A DNA stretch of 19,209 nucleotides. Origin: a virus. Taxonomy: Duplodnaviria > Heunggongvirae > Uroviricota > Caudoviricetes. The first letter of the stretch is position 1. Each line of letters opens with the position of its first letter. A program made the translations under genes and the position numbers. Location of the stretch: positions 1 through 19,209 of the IMG/VR virus record IMGVR_UViG_2684622670_000013; one strand, 5' to 3'. The notes beneath the pieces were generated by a model that saw nothing but the letters and a program-made list of their open reading frames with translations, ran no database searches and had not been told where the DNA came from. This document shows positions 9,172 to 17,250 of the stretch, piece after piece.

Positions 9172-9408
9172 TCACTGTTTGTCCTTGCTGTACATTTTTG
9201 TTAAGGTCTCAAGAAGCGCCTCTTTGAACTTTTCAGCTTCACGAGAAGCGAATTCCTCTTTGCTACTCACATCGTTGGAAACAGCATCAAGGAGAATTTG
9301 AACAATTTCAGCATTCATAGATCTTCTGTTGTTCTTTGCACGCAACCTTATTTTCTCTTTTAACTCATTGGAAACGCGGATATTTATCTGCGGCTCTTCT
9401 CTAGACAT
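9172..9408 (-). CDS. mnt: Mnt-like ribbon-helix-helix repressor
   Basis: 78 aa. Its N-terminus INIRVSNELKEKIRLRAKNNRRSMNAEIVQIL parallels the P22 Mnt/Arc RHH motif (FNFRMP...AEANGRSMNSELLQIV), and the C-terminus LLETLTKMYSK resembles the Mnt C-terminal helix. GGAGG ribosome-binding site 5 nt upstream. Confidence 0.75.
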   Translation of the reverse strand: MSREEPQINIRVSNELKEKIRLRAKNNRRSMNAEIVQILLDAVSNDVSSKEEFASREAEKFKEALLETLTKMYSKDKQ

Positions 9409-9455
9409 GATGCCTCCGTGGTGTAACCGTAATGCAACCTCGTAATATCGTCTTC

Positions 9456-9698
9456 TTACTTGATGTTTACTTCCTTAATGGCTGCAACCTCTCTCTCAAG
9501 AGCTATTAATCTTTCGGTTAAGGAAGAAAGGCTAAGCGAGTGAACATTTTTATTTTCTTCTGCCCATGCACTTAGAGCTGCAACCATTTCTGCATTTAAA
9601 GATCTGCCATTCGCCTCAGCTAACGCGGTTAGGCGATCCTTTATCTCCACAGGAAGTCGAAGATTAACTTGTGGGTTCTTGTACCTGCGTTCAGACAT
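9456..9698 (-). CDS. Arc/Mnt-family ribbon-helix-helix DNA-binding protein (second paralog)
   Basis: 80 aa. VNLRLPVEIKDRLTALAEANGRSLNAEMVAAL matches the Arc-family RHH signature. First gene transcribed leftward from the divergent promoter region. Confidence 0.78.
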   Translation of the reverse strand: MSERRYKNPQVNLRLPVEIKDRLTALAEANGRSLNAEMVAALSAWAEENKNVHSLSLSSLTERLIALEREVAAIKEVNIK

Positions 9699-9803
9699 CA
9701 GCGTATCCTGAATAATTTTTTACCACAGGATATGTAGGTATCTATTGACTATCAATGCGTACCTAAATACTATGTATGCGTACCACATGCAGCGGAGGAT
9801 GCA
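9699..9803. promoter_or_regulatory. Divergent promoter/operator region (Pant-like rightward, Pmnt-like leftward)
   Basis: Candidate rightward promoter: -35 TTGACT (9745-9750), 17 bp spacer, -10 TACTAT (9768-9773), then GGAGG and ATG at 9804. A 13 bp palindrome ATTGA-cta-TCAAT (9744-9756) overlaps the -35. Direct repeats of GCGTACC (9758-9764 and 9778-9784) flank the -10. The repeats could be operator half-sites. Confidence 0.5.
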
Positions 9804-9944
9804 ATGAAGGTAAAAACACTGCGTATGCCAGAGAAGTTAGAAAAAATCCTTGAAGAGAAAGCAAAGGAAGAGTGTCGCTCATTTAGCGCAGAAGTAATTA
9901 AAAGGGTGTTGGACAGCTTGAAAAGAGAGGGGATAACAGTATGA
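9804..9944 (+). CDS. arc: Arc-like ribbon-helix-helix repressor (46 aa)
   Basis: Not in the ORF track (too short). The translation MKVKTLRMPEKLEKILEEKAKEECRSFSAEVIKRVLDSLKREGITV aligns position by position with P22 Arc (...FNLRWPREVLDLVRKVAEENGRSVNSEIYQRVMESFKKEGRIGA). GGAGG ribosome-binding site. Its stop overlaps the next gene's start (ATGA). Confidence 0.72.
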   Translation: MKVKTLRMPEKLEKILEEKAKEECRSFSAEVIKRVLDSLKREGITV

Positions 9945-10144
9945 GTAAAGAATGTTGTTTCTGCGGCATTAGCGAATCAGACGCTGATCAAACATACATT
10001 TACTCTAAAGAAACAGGTCGGATGCTGTGTAGTGACTGCGTGTTGGACATCATAAGATACAAGCATCTTGGATGTTCTGCCAGCATTAGCAATATAGGTG
10101 AAGTATACGAAGGGAAAGATATAACTGATAGAGCAGAAAGTTGA
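9941..10144 (+). CDS. Small zinc-finger protein, ClpX N-terminal C4-type-like (67 aa)
   Basis: CCFCGISE...(17 aa)...CSDCVLDIIR has the CxxC...CxxC spacing and flanking residues of the ClpX-type zinc-binding domain (CSFCGK...CDEC in ClpX). Translationally coupled to the arc-like gene and upstream of the antirepressor. Confidence 0.6.
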   Translation: MSKECCFCGISESDADQTYIYSKETGRMLCSDCVLDIIRYKHLGCSASISNIGEVYEGKDITDRAES

Positions 10145-10207
10145 AGCCCCAACTGCTGTAACAGTCAGGGCTTCGGTATCGTAAAACCACGCATAGGAAT
10201 TAACGAC

Positions 10208-11067
10208 ATGAAAAGTATAGCAACAGCGGTATCTACTATCAACGTGCCATTCCACGGCGCAGAGCTTTATGTTGTCAATCACAACGGCGAACCGTACACC
10301 CCAATGAAACCTATCGTTGAGGGAATGGGCTAGACTGGAAATCTCAACATAAGAAGATTTCTCAACGCTTCTCGAAGGGTATGGTGGAAATCACCATACC
10401 TTCTGCCGGTGGGGTGCAAGCCATGATTTGTATGGCTTTGCGAAAATTGGCAGCTTGGTTGAACAGCATCAGTCCTAACAAAGTCCGCCCTGAAATCCGC
10501 GACAAGGTAATCCAGTATCAGGAAGAGTGTGACGATGTGCTCTACGAGTACTGGACTAAAGGCCATGTGGTTAACCCGCGCAAAGCTAAAAAGACGTTGC
10601 CGGGAAAAATCACCACTGAACAGCAGGAAGCCATTAAACAACTCGTCATGAGTCGCGGTCAGTCTCTGCCAAAAGAAAAACAGGCGAAGGCGATGATCAC
10701 CATGTGGTCGTCACTGAAATCCCATTTTGGATGTTCGTACAAAGAAATCAGTGAGGAGCAGTTTACCGAAGCACTATCACTTGCGGCTCGTATTCCACTT
10801 GAAGGCGAATTCATCGGCAAGTCGGAACATAATGAGATGAGTTGTTTTGATTGGAGGATGAATGTTCATAACCTGAACTCGGCGTGCATTCACCTGGATG
10901 CCATGTACAGAATATGGAGAGACGAAATGGAACCCGCTTTACGATTGCTTGGCTCTCCGGTTGCGGCAAGATTTTACGGAAGAATTGCAGATTGCTATTC
11001 CGTAACTGCAAGCGTTAAGAAAAGTCTGGAGGATGCCGCAGGGCTGAAAGGCTTACAACCATTTTAA
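10208..11067 (+). pseudogene. ant: Phage antirepressor (P22 Ant-type, AR N-terminal domain), apparently disrupted by a 1-nt frameshift near 10327-10330
   Basis: ATG at 10208 encodes MKSIATAVSTINVPFHGAELYVVNHNGEPYTPMKPIVEGMG, then stops at 10331-10333. The next frame continues ...LDWKSQHKKISQRFSKGMVEITIPSAGG... to 11067. Joined, the sequence reads ...KPIVEGMGLDWKSQ..., which is the conserved core of the antirepressor N-terminal domain. The break lies in a GGG run. Confidence 0.62.
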
Positions 11068-11145: not shown

Positions 11146-11961
11146 ATGGGCATAATCGATTTAAACACAGCAGACATATTCAATGCTATCGGTGGTGGCT
11201 CTCCGCTTTCGATCATCGACAGCGTTCTGCATCCCCAGTATGTGATTCGTGACAGGGAAACTGGCGAGGTTGCTCTTGAGTTCAGTGGTATGGCATCCGT
11301 ACAGCCAAGTGGAAGGGCGCAAATAACAAACGCTCCGGTGGAGAAAGGGAAATACCAGTCCATCAACAAAGTTAAAGAACCAGCCAGAGTAAGATGCGCA
11401 ATCATCGTAAATGGTCTTACTGGTTTTTCCGGCAATATCCCGAATATTTTCGATCTCACATTCACAAGCCAGAACAGCACGCTGAACACAATCAAAACGA
11501 TGCTGTCCTCTGCAAAAACATACGATATTGAAACGCCAAAGGAAACTCTGGAGAGTTTCGACCTTGTTGACCACTATTACGAAGTTAACTCTCAAAAAGG
11601 GGTGACTCTTCTGACGGTTTATCTTGATTTTCAGGAGGTCATTCAGCAAATGGAGGTTATCCTCTCTAGCTCTCAGTCAGAACAGAAGCCAACGGATAAC
11701 AATAAGTCACAGGGAGATGTAGGAGTTGATCCGCAAATAACCAATGGCGGAGCCAGGGAATCTACTGTCGATGAGCTAAGTGAGTCATGGTCATCACTGA
11801 AGTCATCTGTTGGCGACATCACTGGAAAAATCTCTGACACAATCAAGACTGAATTCCAGAGTGCTCTTGATACGGTGTCCAAACCAATACTCGAAGTTAC
11901 AAACAGCGCAACAAAAAAAGCGGCAGATATTGCAAAAAATATAGTTAAGGCGAGCACATGA
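11146..11961 (+). CDS. Phage tail/baseplate-associated protein, function unknown
   Basis: 271 aa; first gene of the resumed plus-strand late operon. Its stop overlaps the next gene's start. Low-complexity Ser/Thr-rich C-terminus. Confidence 0.6.
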   Translation: MGIIDLNTADIFNAIGGGSPLSIIDSVLHPQYVIRDRETGEVALEFSGMASVQPSGRAQITNAPVEKGKYQSINKVKEPARVRCAIIVNGLTGFSGNIPNIFDLTFTSQNSTLNTIKTMLSSAKTYDIETPKETLESFDLVDHYYEVNSQKGVTLLTVYLDFQEVIQQMEVILSSSQSEQKPTDNNKSQGDVGVDPQITNGGARESTVDELSESWSSLKSSVGDITGKISDTIKTEFQSALDTVSKPILEVTNSATKKAADIAKNIVKAST

Positions 11962-12260
11962 TTACAGTATCTGTTCTTCCCAGCAAATCTCAGTCCATTT
12001 CGGTAAGTCTGGCTGGTCAGCAATGTAATATAAAACTTGTTCAGCGACAGAGTTTTATGTACATGGATTTAACTGTTAATGAAGTCCCAATTATGCAGGG
12101 CGTTCCATGTCTGTATGGGAATAAGATGGTAAGATATTCCTACCTTGGATTTAAGGGAGACCTTATTTTCATTGATAATGATGGGGAATCGGATCCGCAA
12201 TGGGAAGGCTTGGGTAGCCGTTACTTGCTGTATTACATCGAGGAAAACGAGCTTGTATAA
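11958..12260 (+). CDS. Small phage baseplate/tail protein (100 aa), function unknown
   Basis: ORF coupled (ATGA) to the upstream gene; operon context. Confidence 0.55.
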   Translation: MITVSVLPSKSQSISVSLAGQQCNIKLVQRQSFMYMDLTVNEVPIMQGVPCLYGNKMVRYSYLGFKGDLIFIDNDGESDPQWEGLGSRYLLYYIEENELV

Positions 12261-13134
12261 AAATCACAGTCTTCGGTTTGACTTCACGAATGAATCATCA
12301 GCATTTGATAAAAATGGAAACAATAAAATCTCCATCAGAAATGTTAAGTCAACAGTATCCCTGAACTTTGTTACCGGTCGGGGAGGTGCTCAGGCTGATA
12401 TATCTCTTTACGGGTTAGGAATTGAAAGACTTGCTGATATATCAGGGAAGGCTGATGGTATTGTTGGGGAAGGTCAGAAGTTAAATGTTGAGGTATTTGC
12501 TGATGATTCTCTTGTTTTCTCCGGCACGATGCTTTCATCAATAGCAAACATGAATTCTGCTCCTGAAAGCAGTCTGATGATAACAGCCTCTTCTAATGTT
12601 GATTTACAGAACATGCCAGCAAGCCCGTTTACAGCGCAGGGTGCGCAAAGTGTTGAAGATGTCATCTCATCCATTTGTGCAAGTGCAGGTTATGAGGCTG
12701 TGTTTAATAATGTAAAAGGGATGACAACATCAGGAAGTCCGCATTTTGAAGGAAGTGTTTTTGAGCAACTTTATAGGGTCTGTTCAGATTATGGACTGGC
12801 GATGTCAGCCACGCCACCGACAAAAGTAGAGTTCTGGCCTTCAGAAAAAAACAGAGACGATGTAATTCCGTTTATATCCAGAGAATACGGACTTGTTGGA
12901 TATCCTGTATTTTCAAATGGGGGACTGATGTTTCAGACGCAACATTCATCTCTCCTTTGCATTGGAAGATATGTGGATATCAAAACAGAACTACCACATG
13001 CAAGCGGAAGGTATAAGTTAACCTCCGTTCGGCATGAATTATCATCATGGATGCCAAATGGTTCATGGCACTCAATATGTATTGCCGCCAGAACAGCAGA
13101 ACAAAGAGCAGAGGCGCAACAGAATAATGGATAA
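12253..13134 (+). CDS. Baseplate protein (possibly hub-like); start uncertain (TTG 12253, or ATG 12145/12181 overlapping upstream gene)
   Basis: The frame is open from at least 12145, but that start would overlap the previous gene by 116 nt. TTG at 12253 has a GAGG about 10 nt upstream. Ends at 13132-13134, overlapping the next start. Confidence 0.5.
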   Translation: MYKNHSLRFDFTNESSAFDKNGNNKISIRNVKSTVSLNFVTGRGGAQADISLYGLGIERLADISGKADGIVGEGQKLNVEVFADDSLVFSGTMLSSIANMNSAPESSLMITASSNVDLQNMPASPFTAQGAQSVEDVISSICASAGYEAVFNNVKGMTTSGSPHFEGSVFEQLYRVCSDYGLAMSATPPTKVEFWPSEKNRDDVIPFISREYGLVGYPVFSNGGLMFQTQHSSLLCIGRYVDIKTELPHASGRYKLTSVRHELSSWMPNGSWHSICIAARTAEQRAEAQQNNG

Positions 13135-13819
13135 GCAACTATTTACTCCAACGCCTGCTCAGGTAAGTGAGGCTCAATCTCAGGAATATATTTTTGAGAT
13201 GCTGATGTCTGGATATTTCTTCATTGAGTTAGCGAGAGTTCAGGAAGTCAGGGGGGAAGCACCGGATTTAGTTGTTGACGCTCTTCCTTTACTAACCAGA
13301 ACAGACCGTACAGGAAAAATGATTTCTAACTCGGTTTTATATGATCTTCCAGTATGGCGGTTGCAGAGAGGAAACAGCGCTGTAATTATGGACCCTGTGG
13401 CGGGTGATATTGGTCTGATTGCGGTCTGCGACAAAGACACATCACTGGTAAGAAAAAATCGTAAAGAATCAGTACCTGGAAGCAAAAGGCGACACAGTAA
13501 ATCTGATGCAATTTATCTTGGTGGGGTATTAAATATTGCACCTGCTCAATTCATTGAATTTGCTGATGGTGCAATAAACATAACCACGCCTAACCCACTA
13601 AATATTAAATGTTCATCGTTAAATATTGATGCTCCTGATGGAGTCAACATGAATACTCCTTTACTTAAAGTTAGCGGTGATATTCAGGATAACGCAAGTT
13701 CACAGTCATCTACTGTTAAAAATTTAAGGGACAATTATAACAATCACAAACATTCTGTTTCAGGTGTACAAAGTGGTGGGGCAACAATAAATTCCAATGC
13801 AACGGATAAACCGACATGA
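13127..13819 (+). CDS. Baseplate spike / assembly protein (gpV / Mu gp45-like)
   Basis: I prefer the ATG at 13127 (MDKQLF...) over the ORF-track start at 13034. About 230 aa, with a PVAGDIGLIAVCDKD segment resembling the gpV OB-fold region, followed by a Ser/Asn-rich C-terminus. Position fits V-W-J-I order. Confidence 0.55.
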   Translation: MDKQLFTPTPAQVSEAQSQEYIFEMLMSGYFFIELARVQEVRGEAPDLVVDALPLLTRTDRTGKMISNSVLYDLPVWRLQRGNSAVIMDPVAGDIGLIAVCDKDTSLVRKNRKESVPGSKRRHSKSDAIYLGGVLNIAPAQFIEFADGAINITTPNPLNIKCSSLNIDAPDGVNMNTPLLKVSGDIQDNASSQSSTVKNLRDNYNNHKHSVSGVQSGGATINSNATDKPT

Positions 13820-14175
13820 CATACAGAACTATGCAACTGGACACTTCTACGTGGGACTTGACGCTTGACGGAAATGGCAATCTGGCGATCGCAGAAGAAT
13901 CATATTCTGTTGCTCAGGATGTCGCCAGTGCGTGCCTGGTGTTTTCTGGAGAGTGTTATTACGACAATACGCTTGGGATTCCATGGAAGGCAGAAGTTCT
14001 TGGCAGGCGACCATCTCCTGGTTTTATTGCTCAGAAAATGCAGGCTGAAGCACTCAAATTACCCGTCGTTGAGGATGCTCTGGCATCAGTTTTCTTTGAC
14101 AAGAATACACGTACAACTCGCGGCACAATCCGCGTTACAGATATCAATGGTAATATTGCACAGGCCACCTTATGA
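13816..14175 (+). CDS. Baseplate wedge protein (gpW / gp25-like, Mu gp46-like)
   Basis: 119 aa, ATGA-coupled on both sides, located between the V-like and J-like genes. Confidence 0.62.
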   Translation: MTYRTMQLDTSTWDLTLDGNGNLAIAEESYSVAQDVASACLVFSGECYYDNTLGIPWKAEVLGRRPSPGFIAQKMQAEALKLPVVEDALASVFFDKNTRTTRGTIRVTDINGNIAQATL

Positions 14176-15401
14176 CGATATTAAATACGGCTGTTCCTGA
14201 TGTAACCATCACTGAAAACGGTCTTTCAGTTCCCGACATAGCGGATGTGCTGGCGGGAAGACTTACAGACATGTCAACGGTTCTTGGCGGTGGCGCAAGT
14301 CAGTCACTGAGTTCACCGCAAGGTCAGATCGCACAGTCTGACACTGAAATCATTGCTCAGGTATACGACAAGCTTCTTTGTTTGTTTAATCAAATAAACC
14401 CTGACTTCTCAACCGGTAGATTCCAGGACGGGATTGGTCGGATTTACTTTATGGAACGGATCGCTGCTCAGGGGACAGTTGTTACAGCAACATGCATTGG
14501 TCAGGTTGGAACAACAATACCTGCAGGGAGTACCGCTGTGGATACGAGCGGGTATATATATCAGTCAATTGATAATGCTGTAATACCCTCATCAGGCTCT
14601 GTTGATGTGCAGTTTGTCAACACAACAACCGGGCCGATTCCGTGTGCCGCAGGTTCACTGAACCAGATTTATCGAGCCGTTTCCGGGTGGGATGCTGTAA
14701 ATAATACTAGCCCTGGAGTCGTTGGTGTTGATGTTGAATCACGGATCGCCTTTGAAACTCGCCGGAGACAATCAGTTGCCAGAAACAGTCGAAATCAGGA
14801 CGCATCTACATTAGCCGCGTTACTTGCGACTGATGGTGTGCTTGATGCTTACGTATGGTCAAACAGAACTGCAGAAACAGTAAATAAAGGAACAACGAAT
14901 TTCCCTATTCTGGCGCATTCTGTTTATATTTGTGTTTATGGTGGTGCTGATGAGGATGTTGCTGAGTCAATATTCAATACTTATAATCCTGGTGCCAATA
15001 TGAATGGTGATACAACGTTCACTGTTTACGACAACGTTAATTACATGCCTCCATATCCATCATATGTGATGCAATGGCAAAAAGCATCGCCGACGCGAGT
15101 TTACTTTAAGGTTAATATTGATTCATCTCTAAATCCTCCAAGTGACATATCTAAGCAAGTAAAGGGAATAATATCCACAGTGTTCAATGGTGGGTATGAT
15201 GGTATTGGAAAGGCGCGTATTGGATCAACAATAAATGCTGGTAAATATTATTCACCAGTTATTTCAATCAGCCCCGATACAGTAGGTATTTTGTCTCTTG
15301 AAGTGTCTCTGGATGGTTCTCTATACGGTCCGGCTGTTACTATGGGTATAGATCAAGTTCCAACCATTCAGGAATCAGATATAACTGTTACTTTATCGTA
15401 A
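14172..15401 (+). CDS. Baseplate J-like protein (gpJ / Mu gp47 family)
   Basis: 409 aa; size and position match baseplate J proteins. Followed by a gp48/I-like gene and the tail fibre gene. Confidence 0.75.
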   Translation: MTILNTAVPDVTITENGLSVPDIADVLAGRLTDMSTVLGGGASQSLSSPQGQIAQSDTEIIAQVYDKLLCLFNQINPDFSTGRFQDGIGRIYFMERIAAQGTVVTATCIGQVGTTIPAGSTAVDTSGYIYQSIDNAVIPSSGSVDVQFVNTTTGPIPCAAGSLNQIYRAVSGWDAVNNTSPGVVGVDVESRIAFETRRRQSVARNSRNQDASTLAALLATDGVLDAYVWSNRTAETVNKGTTNFPILAHSVYICVYGGADEDVAESIFNTYNPGANMNGDTTFTVYDNVNYMPPYPSYVMQWQKASPTRVYFKVNIDSSLNPPSDISKQVKGIISTVFNGGYDGIGKARIGSTINAGKYYSPVISISPDTVGILSLEVSLDGSLYGPAVTMGIDQVPTIQESDITVTLS

Positions 15402-15412
15402 GAGAGGGCTGT

Positions 15413-16051
15413 ATGTGGGAAGACACAATTCTTACCCAATACTCAGCAAGCAAAAAATTGCTATCTATCATTGATACTTTTGATCAGGCAGTTAACCTTG
15501 ATGATTTCACTGATGAGTTTATTACAAAAGTATGGGATTTGACCACATGTGAAACATTCGGACTAGATATGTGGGGTAAAATAGTTGGAATAAGTCGTTA
15601 TATTAATGCTCCAATAGAAACCAGTTCTTTCGGATTCAGTGAGGCTAATAGTGCGGACATAAATTACCCAACACCTTTCAATGGAGATCCATTTTTTGGT
15701 GGGATACAGGAAACAACGAATGTTAGGCTGAGTGATGATGCTTACAGAACTCTTATATTTTGCAAAGCGTTCACAAACATTAGTATTGCTACAATTCCAG
15801 AAATCAACCGGTTTCTAAAGATATTGTTTTATCAAAGAGGAAGAGCATACTGTGTAAATTATCGTGATATGACAGTAGGAATAACATTCGAGTTTGAACT
15901 TGCACCATACGAAGAATCTATTCTTACGAATTATGATGTAACACCTGTTCCGAGTGGTGTGCTCGTAGGAATAAACCAAGTGGTAAGTCCTTACTTTGGA
16001 TTTTCATCAGATGCTTATCCGTTTAATGATGGTACATTTTACAGAGATTAA
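15413..16051 (+). CDS. Tail protein, gpI / Mu gp48-like (DUF2313, YmfQ-like)
   Basis: 212 aa, GAGGG ribosome-binding site, immediately upstream of the tail fibre gene. Resembles e14 YmfQ-type proteins (from memory). Confidence 0.68.
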   Translation: MWEDTILTQYSASKKLLSIIDTFDQAVNLDDFTDEFITKVWDLTTCETFGLDMWGKIVGISRYINAPIETSSFGFSEANSADINYPTPFNGDPFFGGIQETTNVRLSDDAYRTLIFCKAFTNISIATIPEINRFLKILFYQRGRAYCVNYRDMTVGITFEFELAPYEESILTNYDVTPVPSGVLVGINQVVSPYFGFSSDAYPFNDGTFYRD

Positions 16052-16053
16052 AT

Positions 16054-17250
16054 ATGAATCGTTCAGACGCGCCAAAAAAACAAACTAAACCATTTGGAAT
16101 CAATGGACAGAGGGGGGAGATTTTACCAACAACTCCGTCAGGTGATAATACAGCATCATATGACTTAGGATTTCCTCCAATAACCATGATCCTTAAATCT
16201 GCAGGGGGATTACCACCAAAAGGTCAAGATATGAATCAAATTCTGTTTGAACTATCTTCTCTATGTAGATGGTTTAGTGCAGGAGCAATAAACTCTTTTG
16301 ATAGTGATTTTGCTATCGGTATTAATGGTTATCCAAAATACGCTCTTATAGTTTCAGATGATGGCAGCGCTTTGTATTTGAACACTGTCGATGGAAATAC
16401 TAATAATCCAAACTCAGTAAGTGATGGATGGTTAAATCTTATATCATATTTAGGCATTGATGAAAAACAGGGTAAAAACCAGAACTTAACTGCGTTATCA
16501 TCTCTTTCTGGAATACCGGATGGATTGGCATTTTTTACAGGTGCCGGAACAATGGATATGACAGCGCTGACTCAAAATGGCAGGGAAATTTTAAGTAAAA
16601 AAAACGTATCGGAAACTCTACAATATTTAACACTTGGTGATGGAACAGGAAGGCTTTTGGGGGTTCAGGCATTTGGATCATCTGGGACTTATCACAAATC
16701 ACCTGGTGTAACGAAAATTATAGTGGAAGCCGTTGGTGGAGGTGGTGCCAGTGGTAATTTGTCGGCAACTGCATCTGGTAACTGTGGTGTAAGTGCTGCC
16801 GGTTCCAACGGGTCATATGCTAAAGCATTTTTTTATCAGTCTATACCTGAATCCGTGCAAGTAACTATTGGAAGCGGTGGTGTAGCAGGAACAGGACCAG
16901 GAGGCTCTGGAGGTGACGGTGGGAATACAAGCTTTGGTGATTTGCTTGTATGTCCGGGAGGAAGGGGATCAACTCAAGTTCAGCAGGTACCTCCATTTTC
17001 AGGGGGCAGTGCAACAGAAGCATCAATTCCTACAGGGCAAGGGATTCTGTTCCATTCAGTTTCACGATCAAATTTATGTGGGGCACTTGGACTTGGTGAT
17101 GATCAGGCGATTGGCATTGAAAGTATAACCACTACTATGCTTGGGACATACGGTATTGGCGGGACAGGTAAATACAATAAGGCGTCATCAGGTCCAGCGA
17201 CAGGAAATAATGGAAATCAGGGATATATTCTTGTGTGGGAGTATCAGTAA
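16054..17250 (+). CDS. Tail fibre protein with glycine-rich C-terminal domain
   Basis: 398 aa. Start is 2 nt after the upstream stop. C-terminal half is strongly Gly-rich (VEAVGGGGASGN...VTIGSGGVAGTGPGGSGGDGGNTSFG...GIGGTGKYNK). AT-rich compared with the upstream tail genes. Confidence 0.72.
   Translation: MNRSDAPKKQTKPFGINGQRGEILPTTPSGDNTASYDLGFPPITMILKSAGGLPPKGQDMNQILFELSSLCRWFSAGAINSFDSDFAIGINGYPKYALIVSDDGSALYLNTVDGNTNNPNSVSDGWLNLISYLGIDEKQGKNQNLTALSSLSGIPDGLAFFTGAGTMDMTALTQNGREILSKKNVSETLQYLTLGDGTGRLLGVQAFGSSGTYHKSPGVTKIIVEAVGGGGASGNLSATASGNCGVSAAGSNGSYAKAFFYQSIPESVQVTIGSGGVAGTGPGGSGGDGGNTSFGDLLVCPGGRGSTQVQQVPPFSGGSATEASIPTGQGILFHSVSRSNLCGALGLGDDQAIGIESITTTMLGTYGIGGTGKYNKASSGPATGNNGNQGYILVWEYQ

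Follow-up and report, generated by a model that had tools for sequence, protein, structure and literature searches.

Positions 9699-9803 of the window (the whole stretch of 19,209 nucleotides of phage DNA analysed here) probably correspond, with a probability of about 0.75, to the promoter-operator region of an immI-type (secondary immunity) cassette controlling the phage antirepressor, in which several repeated boxes are the putative operators. These 105 bp make up the complete intergenic gap between the ATG of a leftward gene (9698) and that of a rightward gene (9804). As judged from the sequence, they form a real, functional-looking operator-promoter region that represents a conserved and previously undescribed variant of a well-known phage switch. 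No operator-level description of this type of control region was found in the literature consulted; the PDB entry 9PIO belongs to an unrelated ClpXP substrate study.

A sequence-only reading of the same DNA had proposed a compact divergent operator layout for Arc- and Mnt-like RHH repressors, and this proposal is supported by three lines of evidence: both flanking genes are Arc-family genes in Pfam (PF03869) whose products align to the solved structures of P22 Arc and Mnt, the cassette has sar and ant like P22 immI, and the promoters and the repeated box are kept in distant relatives under clear purifying selection. Of the elements expected of an immI cassette, divergent mnt-like and arc-like RHH genes, an ant gene (frameshifted), sar and divergent, overlapping predicted promoters are present (Table 1). 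The motifs listed in that reading (TTGACT, a 13-bp palindrome, TACTAT, two GCGTACC and two TACCACA) were all found in place, and mechanical scans added a third box, a leftward promoter, a palindrome (I1) and an inverted repeat (I2) that were absent from it.

Genes on either side of the cassette (3576-7906 and 11146-17250) are of myovirus type: their products are tail sheath and baseplate (hub and wedge) proteins, tail fibres and a lytic tail protein resembling a tape measure. Because of these sheath, baseplate and tail fibre genes, the cassette is assigned to a contractile-tail phage and not to a P22-like podovirus.

Table 1. Features of the control region and of the surrounding cassette (window coordinates)
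Feature	Position	Strand	Description
mntB	9172..9408	-	78-aa Arc-family RHH protein; PF03869, E 3e-12
mntA	9456..9698	-	80-aa Arc/Mnt-family repressor gene; PF03869, E 1.8e-10
Inverted repeat I2	9693..9743	.	inner arms TATCCTG 9704-9710 and CAGGATA 9726-9732
Control region	9699..9803	.	mntA / arc-like intergenic gap
Possible fourth, degenerate box	9701..9707	+	GCGTATC, matches RSRTAYC; beside mntA start codon, overlaps SD complement
PL -10 hexamer	9727..9732	-	TATCCT; scan; predicted start ~9720
Box A	9736..9743	.	AGGTATC (other strand AGATACC); within PL spacer
PR -35 hexamer	9745..9750	+	TTGACT; scan; in 21/22 representatives, L097 has TTGACG
PL -35 hexamer	9750..9755	-	TTGATA (TTGCTA in one subgroup); overlaps PR -35 by 1 bp
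Box B	9755..9763	+	ATGCGTACC; within PR spacer, ~-25 to -17 from predicted start
PR -10 hexamer	9768..9773	+	TACTAT; 17-bp spacer; predicted start ~9780
Box C	9776..9784	+	ATGCGTACC; over predicted PR start
arc-like gene	9804..9944	+	46-aa Arc-family protein; PF03869, E 3.7e-8; SD GGAGG 9794-9798
67-aa Cys-rich ORF	9941..10144	+	CxxC...CxxC; phrog_7150, E 3.4e-50, function unknown
sar antisense RNA	10139..10206	-	Rfam RF00262, 82.3 bits (gathering threshold 43), E 3.5e-17, full length 1-68
Putative sar promoter	10214..10242	-	TTGATA-17-TATACT, TG ahead of -10; scan, 10/12 matches
ant antirepressor	10208..11067	+	P22_AR_N domain (PF10547); frameshifted, domain split over two ORFs

Arc-family repressor genes next to the control region

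Three genes located beside the region encode Arc-family proteins whose Pfam scores (40.9, 46.6 and 33.5 bits) pass the PF03869 cut-off of 20.4 and whose beta-strand and helix A can be aligned to those of P22 Arc and Mnt in the solved structures. MntA displays the beta-strand PQVNLRLP and matches both Mnt (1mnt, 1.2e-5) and Arc (1baz, 1.5e-5) in the PDB. In BLASTP it aligns to P22 Mnt over the RHH domain only (residues 8-39); its C-terminus (LTERLIALEREVAAIKE) is not that of Mnt, and the same comparison detected no homology to the C-terminal tetramerisation region of P22 Mnt. The Arc-like protein, which starts with MKVKTLRMP, aligns to residues 11-49 of P22 Arc and is labelled "Arc family" in its RefSeq homologues.

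The third product, MntB, is a full-length homologue of P22 Mnt, C-terminal region included (37% identity over residues 1-75, BLASTP). Its gene has 91.8% DNA identity to a gene of Cronobacter phage ES2, whose counterpart heads its own mnt / arc-sar-ant cassette with a different control region (L145, 1498-2052) containing the inverted repeat TAACCGT...ACGGTTA. In the window, just ca. 25 bp of this ES2-type upstream DNA survive 3' of mntA, with one copy of the repeat retained near 9423-9430, and mntB is missing from several loci having the same control region as the window. This absence, together with the DNA identity to ES2 and the distinct control region found there, makes MntB unlikely to act on 9699-9803, and it was rejected as a regulator of this region. 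MntB is probably a captured repressor of other specificity and, as an orphan, may confer immunity against Ant expression by ES2-type phages. CUS-3 likewise stacks two mnt genes.

Divergent promoters and the palindrome at their junction

Promoter scanning returned a rightward sigma-70-type promoter, PR (TTGACT-17-TACTAT), and a leftward promoter-like site, PL (TTGATA-17-TATCCT). The scan by itself is non-significant (4 promoters found vs 3.1 expected), and support was drawn not from this count but from conservation across relatives and from P22 as a positive control, in which the identical scan returned just the annotated Pant and Pmnt and nothing else. Conservation was assessed on 22 de-replicated representatives from E. 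coli, Salmonella, Photorhabdus, Pantoea and metagenomic phages, anchored on TTGAC and having cores less than 92% identical to one another.

The near-consensus -35 and the candidate -10 noticed in the sequence-only reading stand as the two hexamers of PR, the former lying within the 13-bp palindrome (9744-9756; ATTGA-cta-TCAAT, with 5-bp arms and a 3-bp centre) and the latter 17 bp past this -35. A -10-like hexamer occurs at this distance from the PR -35 in 19 of the 22 representatives, PR taking the form TTGACT-17-TACTAT or TTGACT-17-TAATAT. As for PL, a -10-like hexamer is found exactly 17 bp from TTG(A/C)TA in 18 representatives and at 18 bp in two more, the other offsets from 8 to 33 bp giving 0-3 of 22. 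This slot is filled by ten different hexamer sequences, and the PL -10 looks real because its position is conserved without conservation of its sequence. A leftward promoter of the P22 style, fully overlapping PR, was also considered; it reaches just a 7/12 match, is not conserved and was rejected.

With PR and PL in place, the best account of the 13-bp palindrome is a pair of -35 hexamers overlapping by one base. Alternatively, the palindrome (ATTGActaTCAAT) could itself be an operator at which a single RHH protein would block both -35s, in parallel with P22 Arc, which represses both Pant and Pmnt. Its centre at 9750 lies exactly halfway between boxes A and B and coincides with that of I1 (see below), and TTGACTA.CAAT is near-invariant, which goes beyond the usual conservation of a -35 hexamer. 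However, the right arm TATCAAT has become TAGCAAT, with GCAAT in place of TCAAT, in a large subgroup in which the beta-strands of both proteins are unchanged, and reads TTGACGAGCAAT in L097; the symmetry is broken in these loci while TTG is kept on both strands. Such a pattern of arm changes is more readily reconciled with a pair of -35 hexamers than with a symmetric operator, and the latter was downgraded to an unlikely explanation since symmetry decays with neither protein changed.

A phased array of three boxes

The two GCGTACC copies reported to flank the -10 are real (9757-9763 and 9778-9784) and turn out to be part of a three-box array, the boxes A, B and C, that occurs as direct copies of 8-9 bp spaced exactly 21 bp apart, with the profile (A/G)T(G/A)(C/G)(G/A)TA(C/T)C. 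In boxes B and C the GCGTACC pair extends to an exact 9-mer (ATGCGTACC) found twice, 21 bp apart, these being the sole exact copies in the 19.2 kb. Box A is the weaker match in the window, and reads GCGTACC, GCATACC or AGATACC in distant relatives. Each box has a GTAC-type pseudo-palindromic core (centres at 9739.5, 9760.5 and 9781.5) of the size read by one RHH dimer, and the spacing of 21 bp, corresponding to two helical turns, places all three boxes on one face of the DNA. It also explains a 21-nt tandem duplication seen at 9738-9758 and 9759-9779.

When the 105 bp were submitted to dinucleotide shuffling, a direct repeat of at least 9 nt was obtained in 76 of 5000 shuffles; at least three RSRTAYC boxes were obtained in 4 of 5000 and a trio with the exact 21-bp spacing in none of 5000, counts that are optimistic because the box pattern was drawn up after viewing the family. 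Boxes A and B mirror each other about the shared -35 region, each starting 6 nt past the -35 of its own promoter, and this mirrored arrangement is what constitutes I1, a 39-bp imperfect palindrome (9731-9769, centre 9750) with 14/18 matches, a level reached in 4 of 1000 shuffles.

Other repeated elements were less convincing. The TACCACA repeats of the sequence-only reading do exist at 9721-9727 and 9781-9787, but they occur at chance level (3 in the window vs 2.0 expected) and the first copy is not conserved outside close relatives, so that TACCACA was rejected as a conserved motif. The possible fourth box (GCGTATC) is located 35 bp from box A, out of phase with the array; degenerate versions are found in close relatives only and none in distant ones, and its status as a box is uncertain. 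Finally, box C is flanked by an imperfect inverted repeat composed of GTATG (9774-9778) and CATGC (9786-9790), the latter being CATAC in most relatives, and an ATACA element is conserved at +42 to +46 from TTGAC.

Conservation and recombination of the control region

Besides CUS-3 and the Salmonella phage SEN22, the control region is present, at the megablast level, in 462 of the 5426 complete E. coli genomes, and it also occurs in viral and genomic contigs, Photorhabdus and Pantoea included, with MntA 47-73% identical to that of the window. Among the 22 representatives, no indels were found between ca. -14 and +46, and the hexamers and boxes show high information content; the conserved string reads TA.gT...TA.cTa, directly followed by TTGACTA.CAATgCGTAcc.aaatA.TATGtaTGC.TACc..aTacA.

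Conservation of this kind might simply reflect a recent horizontal spread of the cassette, its motifs being non-regulatory. The cassette is mobile, being known in podo-, sipho- and myovirus contexts, and the window itself is a recombinant with a junction within the control region. Yet core identity to the window amounts to 77-97% in the relatives whereas the third codon positions of the adjoining mntA (first 44 codons) are saturated at 32-52%, a contrast that shows the region to be under purifying selection and not simply a recent transfer. The leftward -10, moreover, is retained by position and not by sequence, and an explanation by recent spread alone is very improbable.

The recombinant nature of the window appears from its identity to two different relatives. 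Left of ca. 9767, it is 95-100% identical to an E. coli prophage (L005) and 17-88% identical to CUS-3, while right of ca. 9768 the identity is 88-100% with CUS-3 and 30-70% with L005. The crossover (9728-9767) thus falls inside the conserved operator core, which suggests that shared operators act as a joint at which mntA and arc alleles are swapped. The immI cassette is found between gene 16 and the tailspike gene in the podoviruses CUS-3 and SEN22 and between tail genes in a lambdoid prophage (L007). Its occurrence in myo-, podo- and lambdoid tail contexts points to a mobile moron moving among the tail operons of all three morphotypes.

Comparison with P22 and with CUS-3-type cassettes

P22 immI and the Arc and Mnt proteins are textbook models of protein-DNA recognition and, to our knowledge, operators of this kind of cassette have been characterised for P22 only. 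The region described here would define a second, widespread specificity type, present in E. coli and in several other genera. Its promoter geometry, divergent from that of P22, and its phased three-box array offer a natural comparison, in which RHH proteins having the same Gln/Asn/Arg beta-strand would face different DNA. Antirepressor cassettes determine both the induction of prophages and the cross-immunity of phages, and known operators would help predict which prophages cross-repress each other's ant genes.

In the P22 circuit, Mnt is the repressor of arc and ant, Arc is that of mnt and has a moderating effect on ant, and sar is an antisense RNA to ant (PMC11016777). The annotated P22 record was used as reference, with the immI control region at 14771-14860 of NC_002371 (Pant/Pmnt, Oarc, Omnt). 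As in P22, leftward mnt-type and rightward arc-type RHH genes flank a control region of ca. 100 bp with sar and ant downstream, the rightward promoter is strong with a near-consensus -35, one repressor site (putative in our case) sits in the promoter spacer and another over the start, and the whole is a moron embedded in a late/tail operon (PMC2629481). The geometry differs in that the P22 promoters overlap almost fully, each -35 lying over the other's -10 and the starts being ca. 37 bp apart, whereas here only the -35 hexamers overlap and the predicted starts are ca. 60 bp apart. The operators of P22, moreover, are two distinct palindromes (21 and 17 bp), in contrast to a single box occurring three times as direct copies with 21-bp spacing. 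Neither Oarc (ATGATAGAAGCACTCTACTAT) nor Omnt (AGGTCCACGGTGGACCT) is present here, the best matches being 12/21 and 10/17 respectively, which indicates a different specificity (heteroimmune) type. Unlike P22, the cassette also includes a 67-aa ORF and a second mnt gene, and its operator-adjacent gene, mntA, has no Mnt-type C-terminus.

A closer resemblance was found with the "ant moron" of CUS-3 and SEN22 (CP000711 and KT630648), which has a core 95-97% identical to that of the window and the same MntA-type, Arc-like, sar and ant components. Over its right half, the cassette of the window shares 93-100% identity with that of CUS-3. These two are P22-like phages whereas the phage studied here is contractile-tailed; compared with CUS-3, mntA is a different, L005-like allele and the second mnt gene is of ES2 type. 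Villafane et al. 2008 (PMC2629481) described the CUS-3-type moron as apparently without arc and suggested a different control mechanism. In the CUS-3 record (CP000711; L001 locus, 3256-3396), a 46-aa Arc-family ORF nevertheless lies unannotated in a segment labelled only "bsq2 boundary sequence", and RefSeq prophage copies do annotate the 46-aa Arc-family gene. On sequence grounds, arc is present in CUS-3-type cassettes and has simply been left unannotated, which corrects the published impression of cassettes devoid of it.

Candidate reader of the boxes and proposed mechanism

In every locus found, the boxes accompany a MntA with the beta-strand PQVNLR(L/M)P and, in almost all box-bearing loci, an Arc-like protein with the N-terminus MKVKT(L/V/I)RMP. 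No natural chimera separating the two proteins was detected, all 46 distinct intergenic sequences carrying both of them and the boxes; since MntA and the Arc-like protein always occur together, co-variation cannot assign the boxes to one or the other. At the family level, however, operators and proteins do co-vary, as loci with other beta-strands (P22, the O145 lambdoid prophage L007 and Proteus prophages) have other repeats. A second specificity class was observed in L007 (1328-1436), L025 and related Proteus loci, with repeats of the TGTGATATCACA / TCACAGTG type and with beta-strands that differ in both repressors (SVRMP and ILVRMP). In Photorhabdus loci, the Arc-like beta-strand is altered (VSVRMP, with a 3-aa insertion) while the MntA strand and the consensus boxes are kept, which weakly favours MntA as the reader of the boxes.

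In the proposed mechanism, PR (putative start ~9780) would drive the arc-like gene, the 67-aa ORF and ant, and PL (putative start ~9720) would drive mntA and mntB. In the lysogen, MntA bound to the perfect boxes B and C would shut PR, so that no Ant is made, and occupancy of box A, weaker in this lineage, would turn down PL and result in autoregulation. After infection, the Arc-like protein produced from PR would feed back on the same region, and sar would block ant translation.

The flanks of box C may, however, indicate that the two repressors use separate sites, with MntA reading the GTAC boxes and the Arc-like protein reading GTATG (9774-9778) and CAT(A/G)C (9786-9790). Such an arrangement would resemble the distinct Omnt and Oarc of P22 and would fit the difference between the Arc-like beta-strand (V/T/R) and that of MntA (Q/N/R). 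Two elements, ATACA on the 3' side of box C and the GTA lying between it and the -10, are conserved beyond promoter needs, and Photorhabdus loci with the different Arc-like strand duplicate an CATACAAA element, 11 bp apart. On the other hand, the window has a mismatch in the right arm (CATGC), the symmetry counted from the sequence covers just 5-6 of 8 positions and is not significant alone, and the elements lie in the 5' UTR and discriminator, where other reasons for conservation are possible. Separate sites are a plausible arrangement, although we hold them to be less probable than even odds.

With regard to MntA acting on several boxes, the distance of 21 bp exceeds that of an Arc-type dimer-dimer contact and a bridging oligomer would thus be needed, via the C-terminal amphipathic segment of MntA. 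That this segment is unlike the Mnt tetramerisation domain counts against bridging; it is the C-terminus of MntB that resembles that of Mnt. NikR-type RHH tetramers bind half-sites located ca. 21-22 bp apart on one DNA face by means of a separate oligomerisation domain. The parallel is an analogy only, given that there is no C-terminal domain homology and that NikR half-sites are inverted whereas the boxes are direct.

A more elaborate and speculative scheme, which we consider rather unlikely, would make the boxes a three-site switch resembling lambda OR for one RHH repressor, MntA, whose non-Mnt, zipper-like C-terminus would bridge either B and C (PR off, PL on) or A and B (both off) through alternative pairwise cooperativity across 21 bp, the shared operator core serving also as a recombination joint for mntA and arc alleles between podo-, sipho- and myoviruses. 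If true, such a three-site, single-repressor switch would be an operator architecture undescribed for the Arc/Mnt family.

Inverted repeat I2 at the start of mntA

Inverted repeat I2 (TATCCTG-N15-CAGGATA, extendable to 18-nt arms) pairs the SD and start of mntA with the leftward -10 and box A, and its RNA fold has z values of -3.7 on the minus strand and -3.9 on the plus strand. It is kept in loci L001, L002, L013 and L015 and not in L011, L016 and L019-L023, more distant relatives being devoid of it. The hairpin was not retained as a conserved RNA element because it is limited to some lineages and its 5' arm precedes the predicted start of PL.

It could nonetheless point to an additional control of mntA at the RNA level, with the hairpin hiding the SD and AUG of a transcript initiated upstream of 9743. 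One candidate source of this transcript is a weak overlapping promoter of the P22 style, TACATA-17-GATAGT, which has a 7/12 match at the right place. On the mntA-sense strand, the fold z values of the window and of CUS-3 are -3.7 and -4.1, respectively, and differences between the two preserve pairing via G-U pairs on that strand only. Several observations speak against this alternative: the well-conserved PL would start at ca. 9720, within the loop, and leave the 5' arm untranscribed; the hairpin is absent from the seven loci cited above; the TAGCAA subgroup lacks the A2 of the alternative -10; and the complementarity of the AGGT-containing box to the SD complement can be a by-product. An RNA-level control of this type appears quite doubtful.

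Downstream genes of the cassette

Sar covers the ribosome-binding region and translation start of ant, and the position of its putative promoter agrees with the sar 5' end at 10206 and mirrors that of P22 Psar within ant. The ant frameshift, as deduced from alignment to CUS-3 and from translation, is due to a 1-nt deletion in the G run at 10328-10333, with GGGG in CUS-3 and GGG here; it reflects either a pseudogene or a sequencing error, and the switch of this phage may be undergoing decay.

The 67-aa ORF, which separates arc from ant and which P22 does not have, shows a zinc-ribbon-like CCFCG...CSDC pattern and no Pfam match. It overlaps the arc stop codon (ATGA) while its own 3' end is overlapped by sar. 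Finally, many O157:H7 genomes contain unannotated DNA with 94% identity to ca. 90 bp of this ORF.
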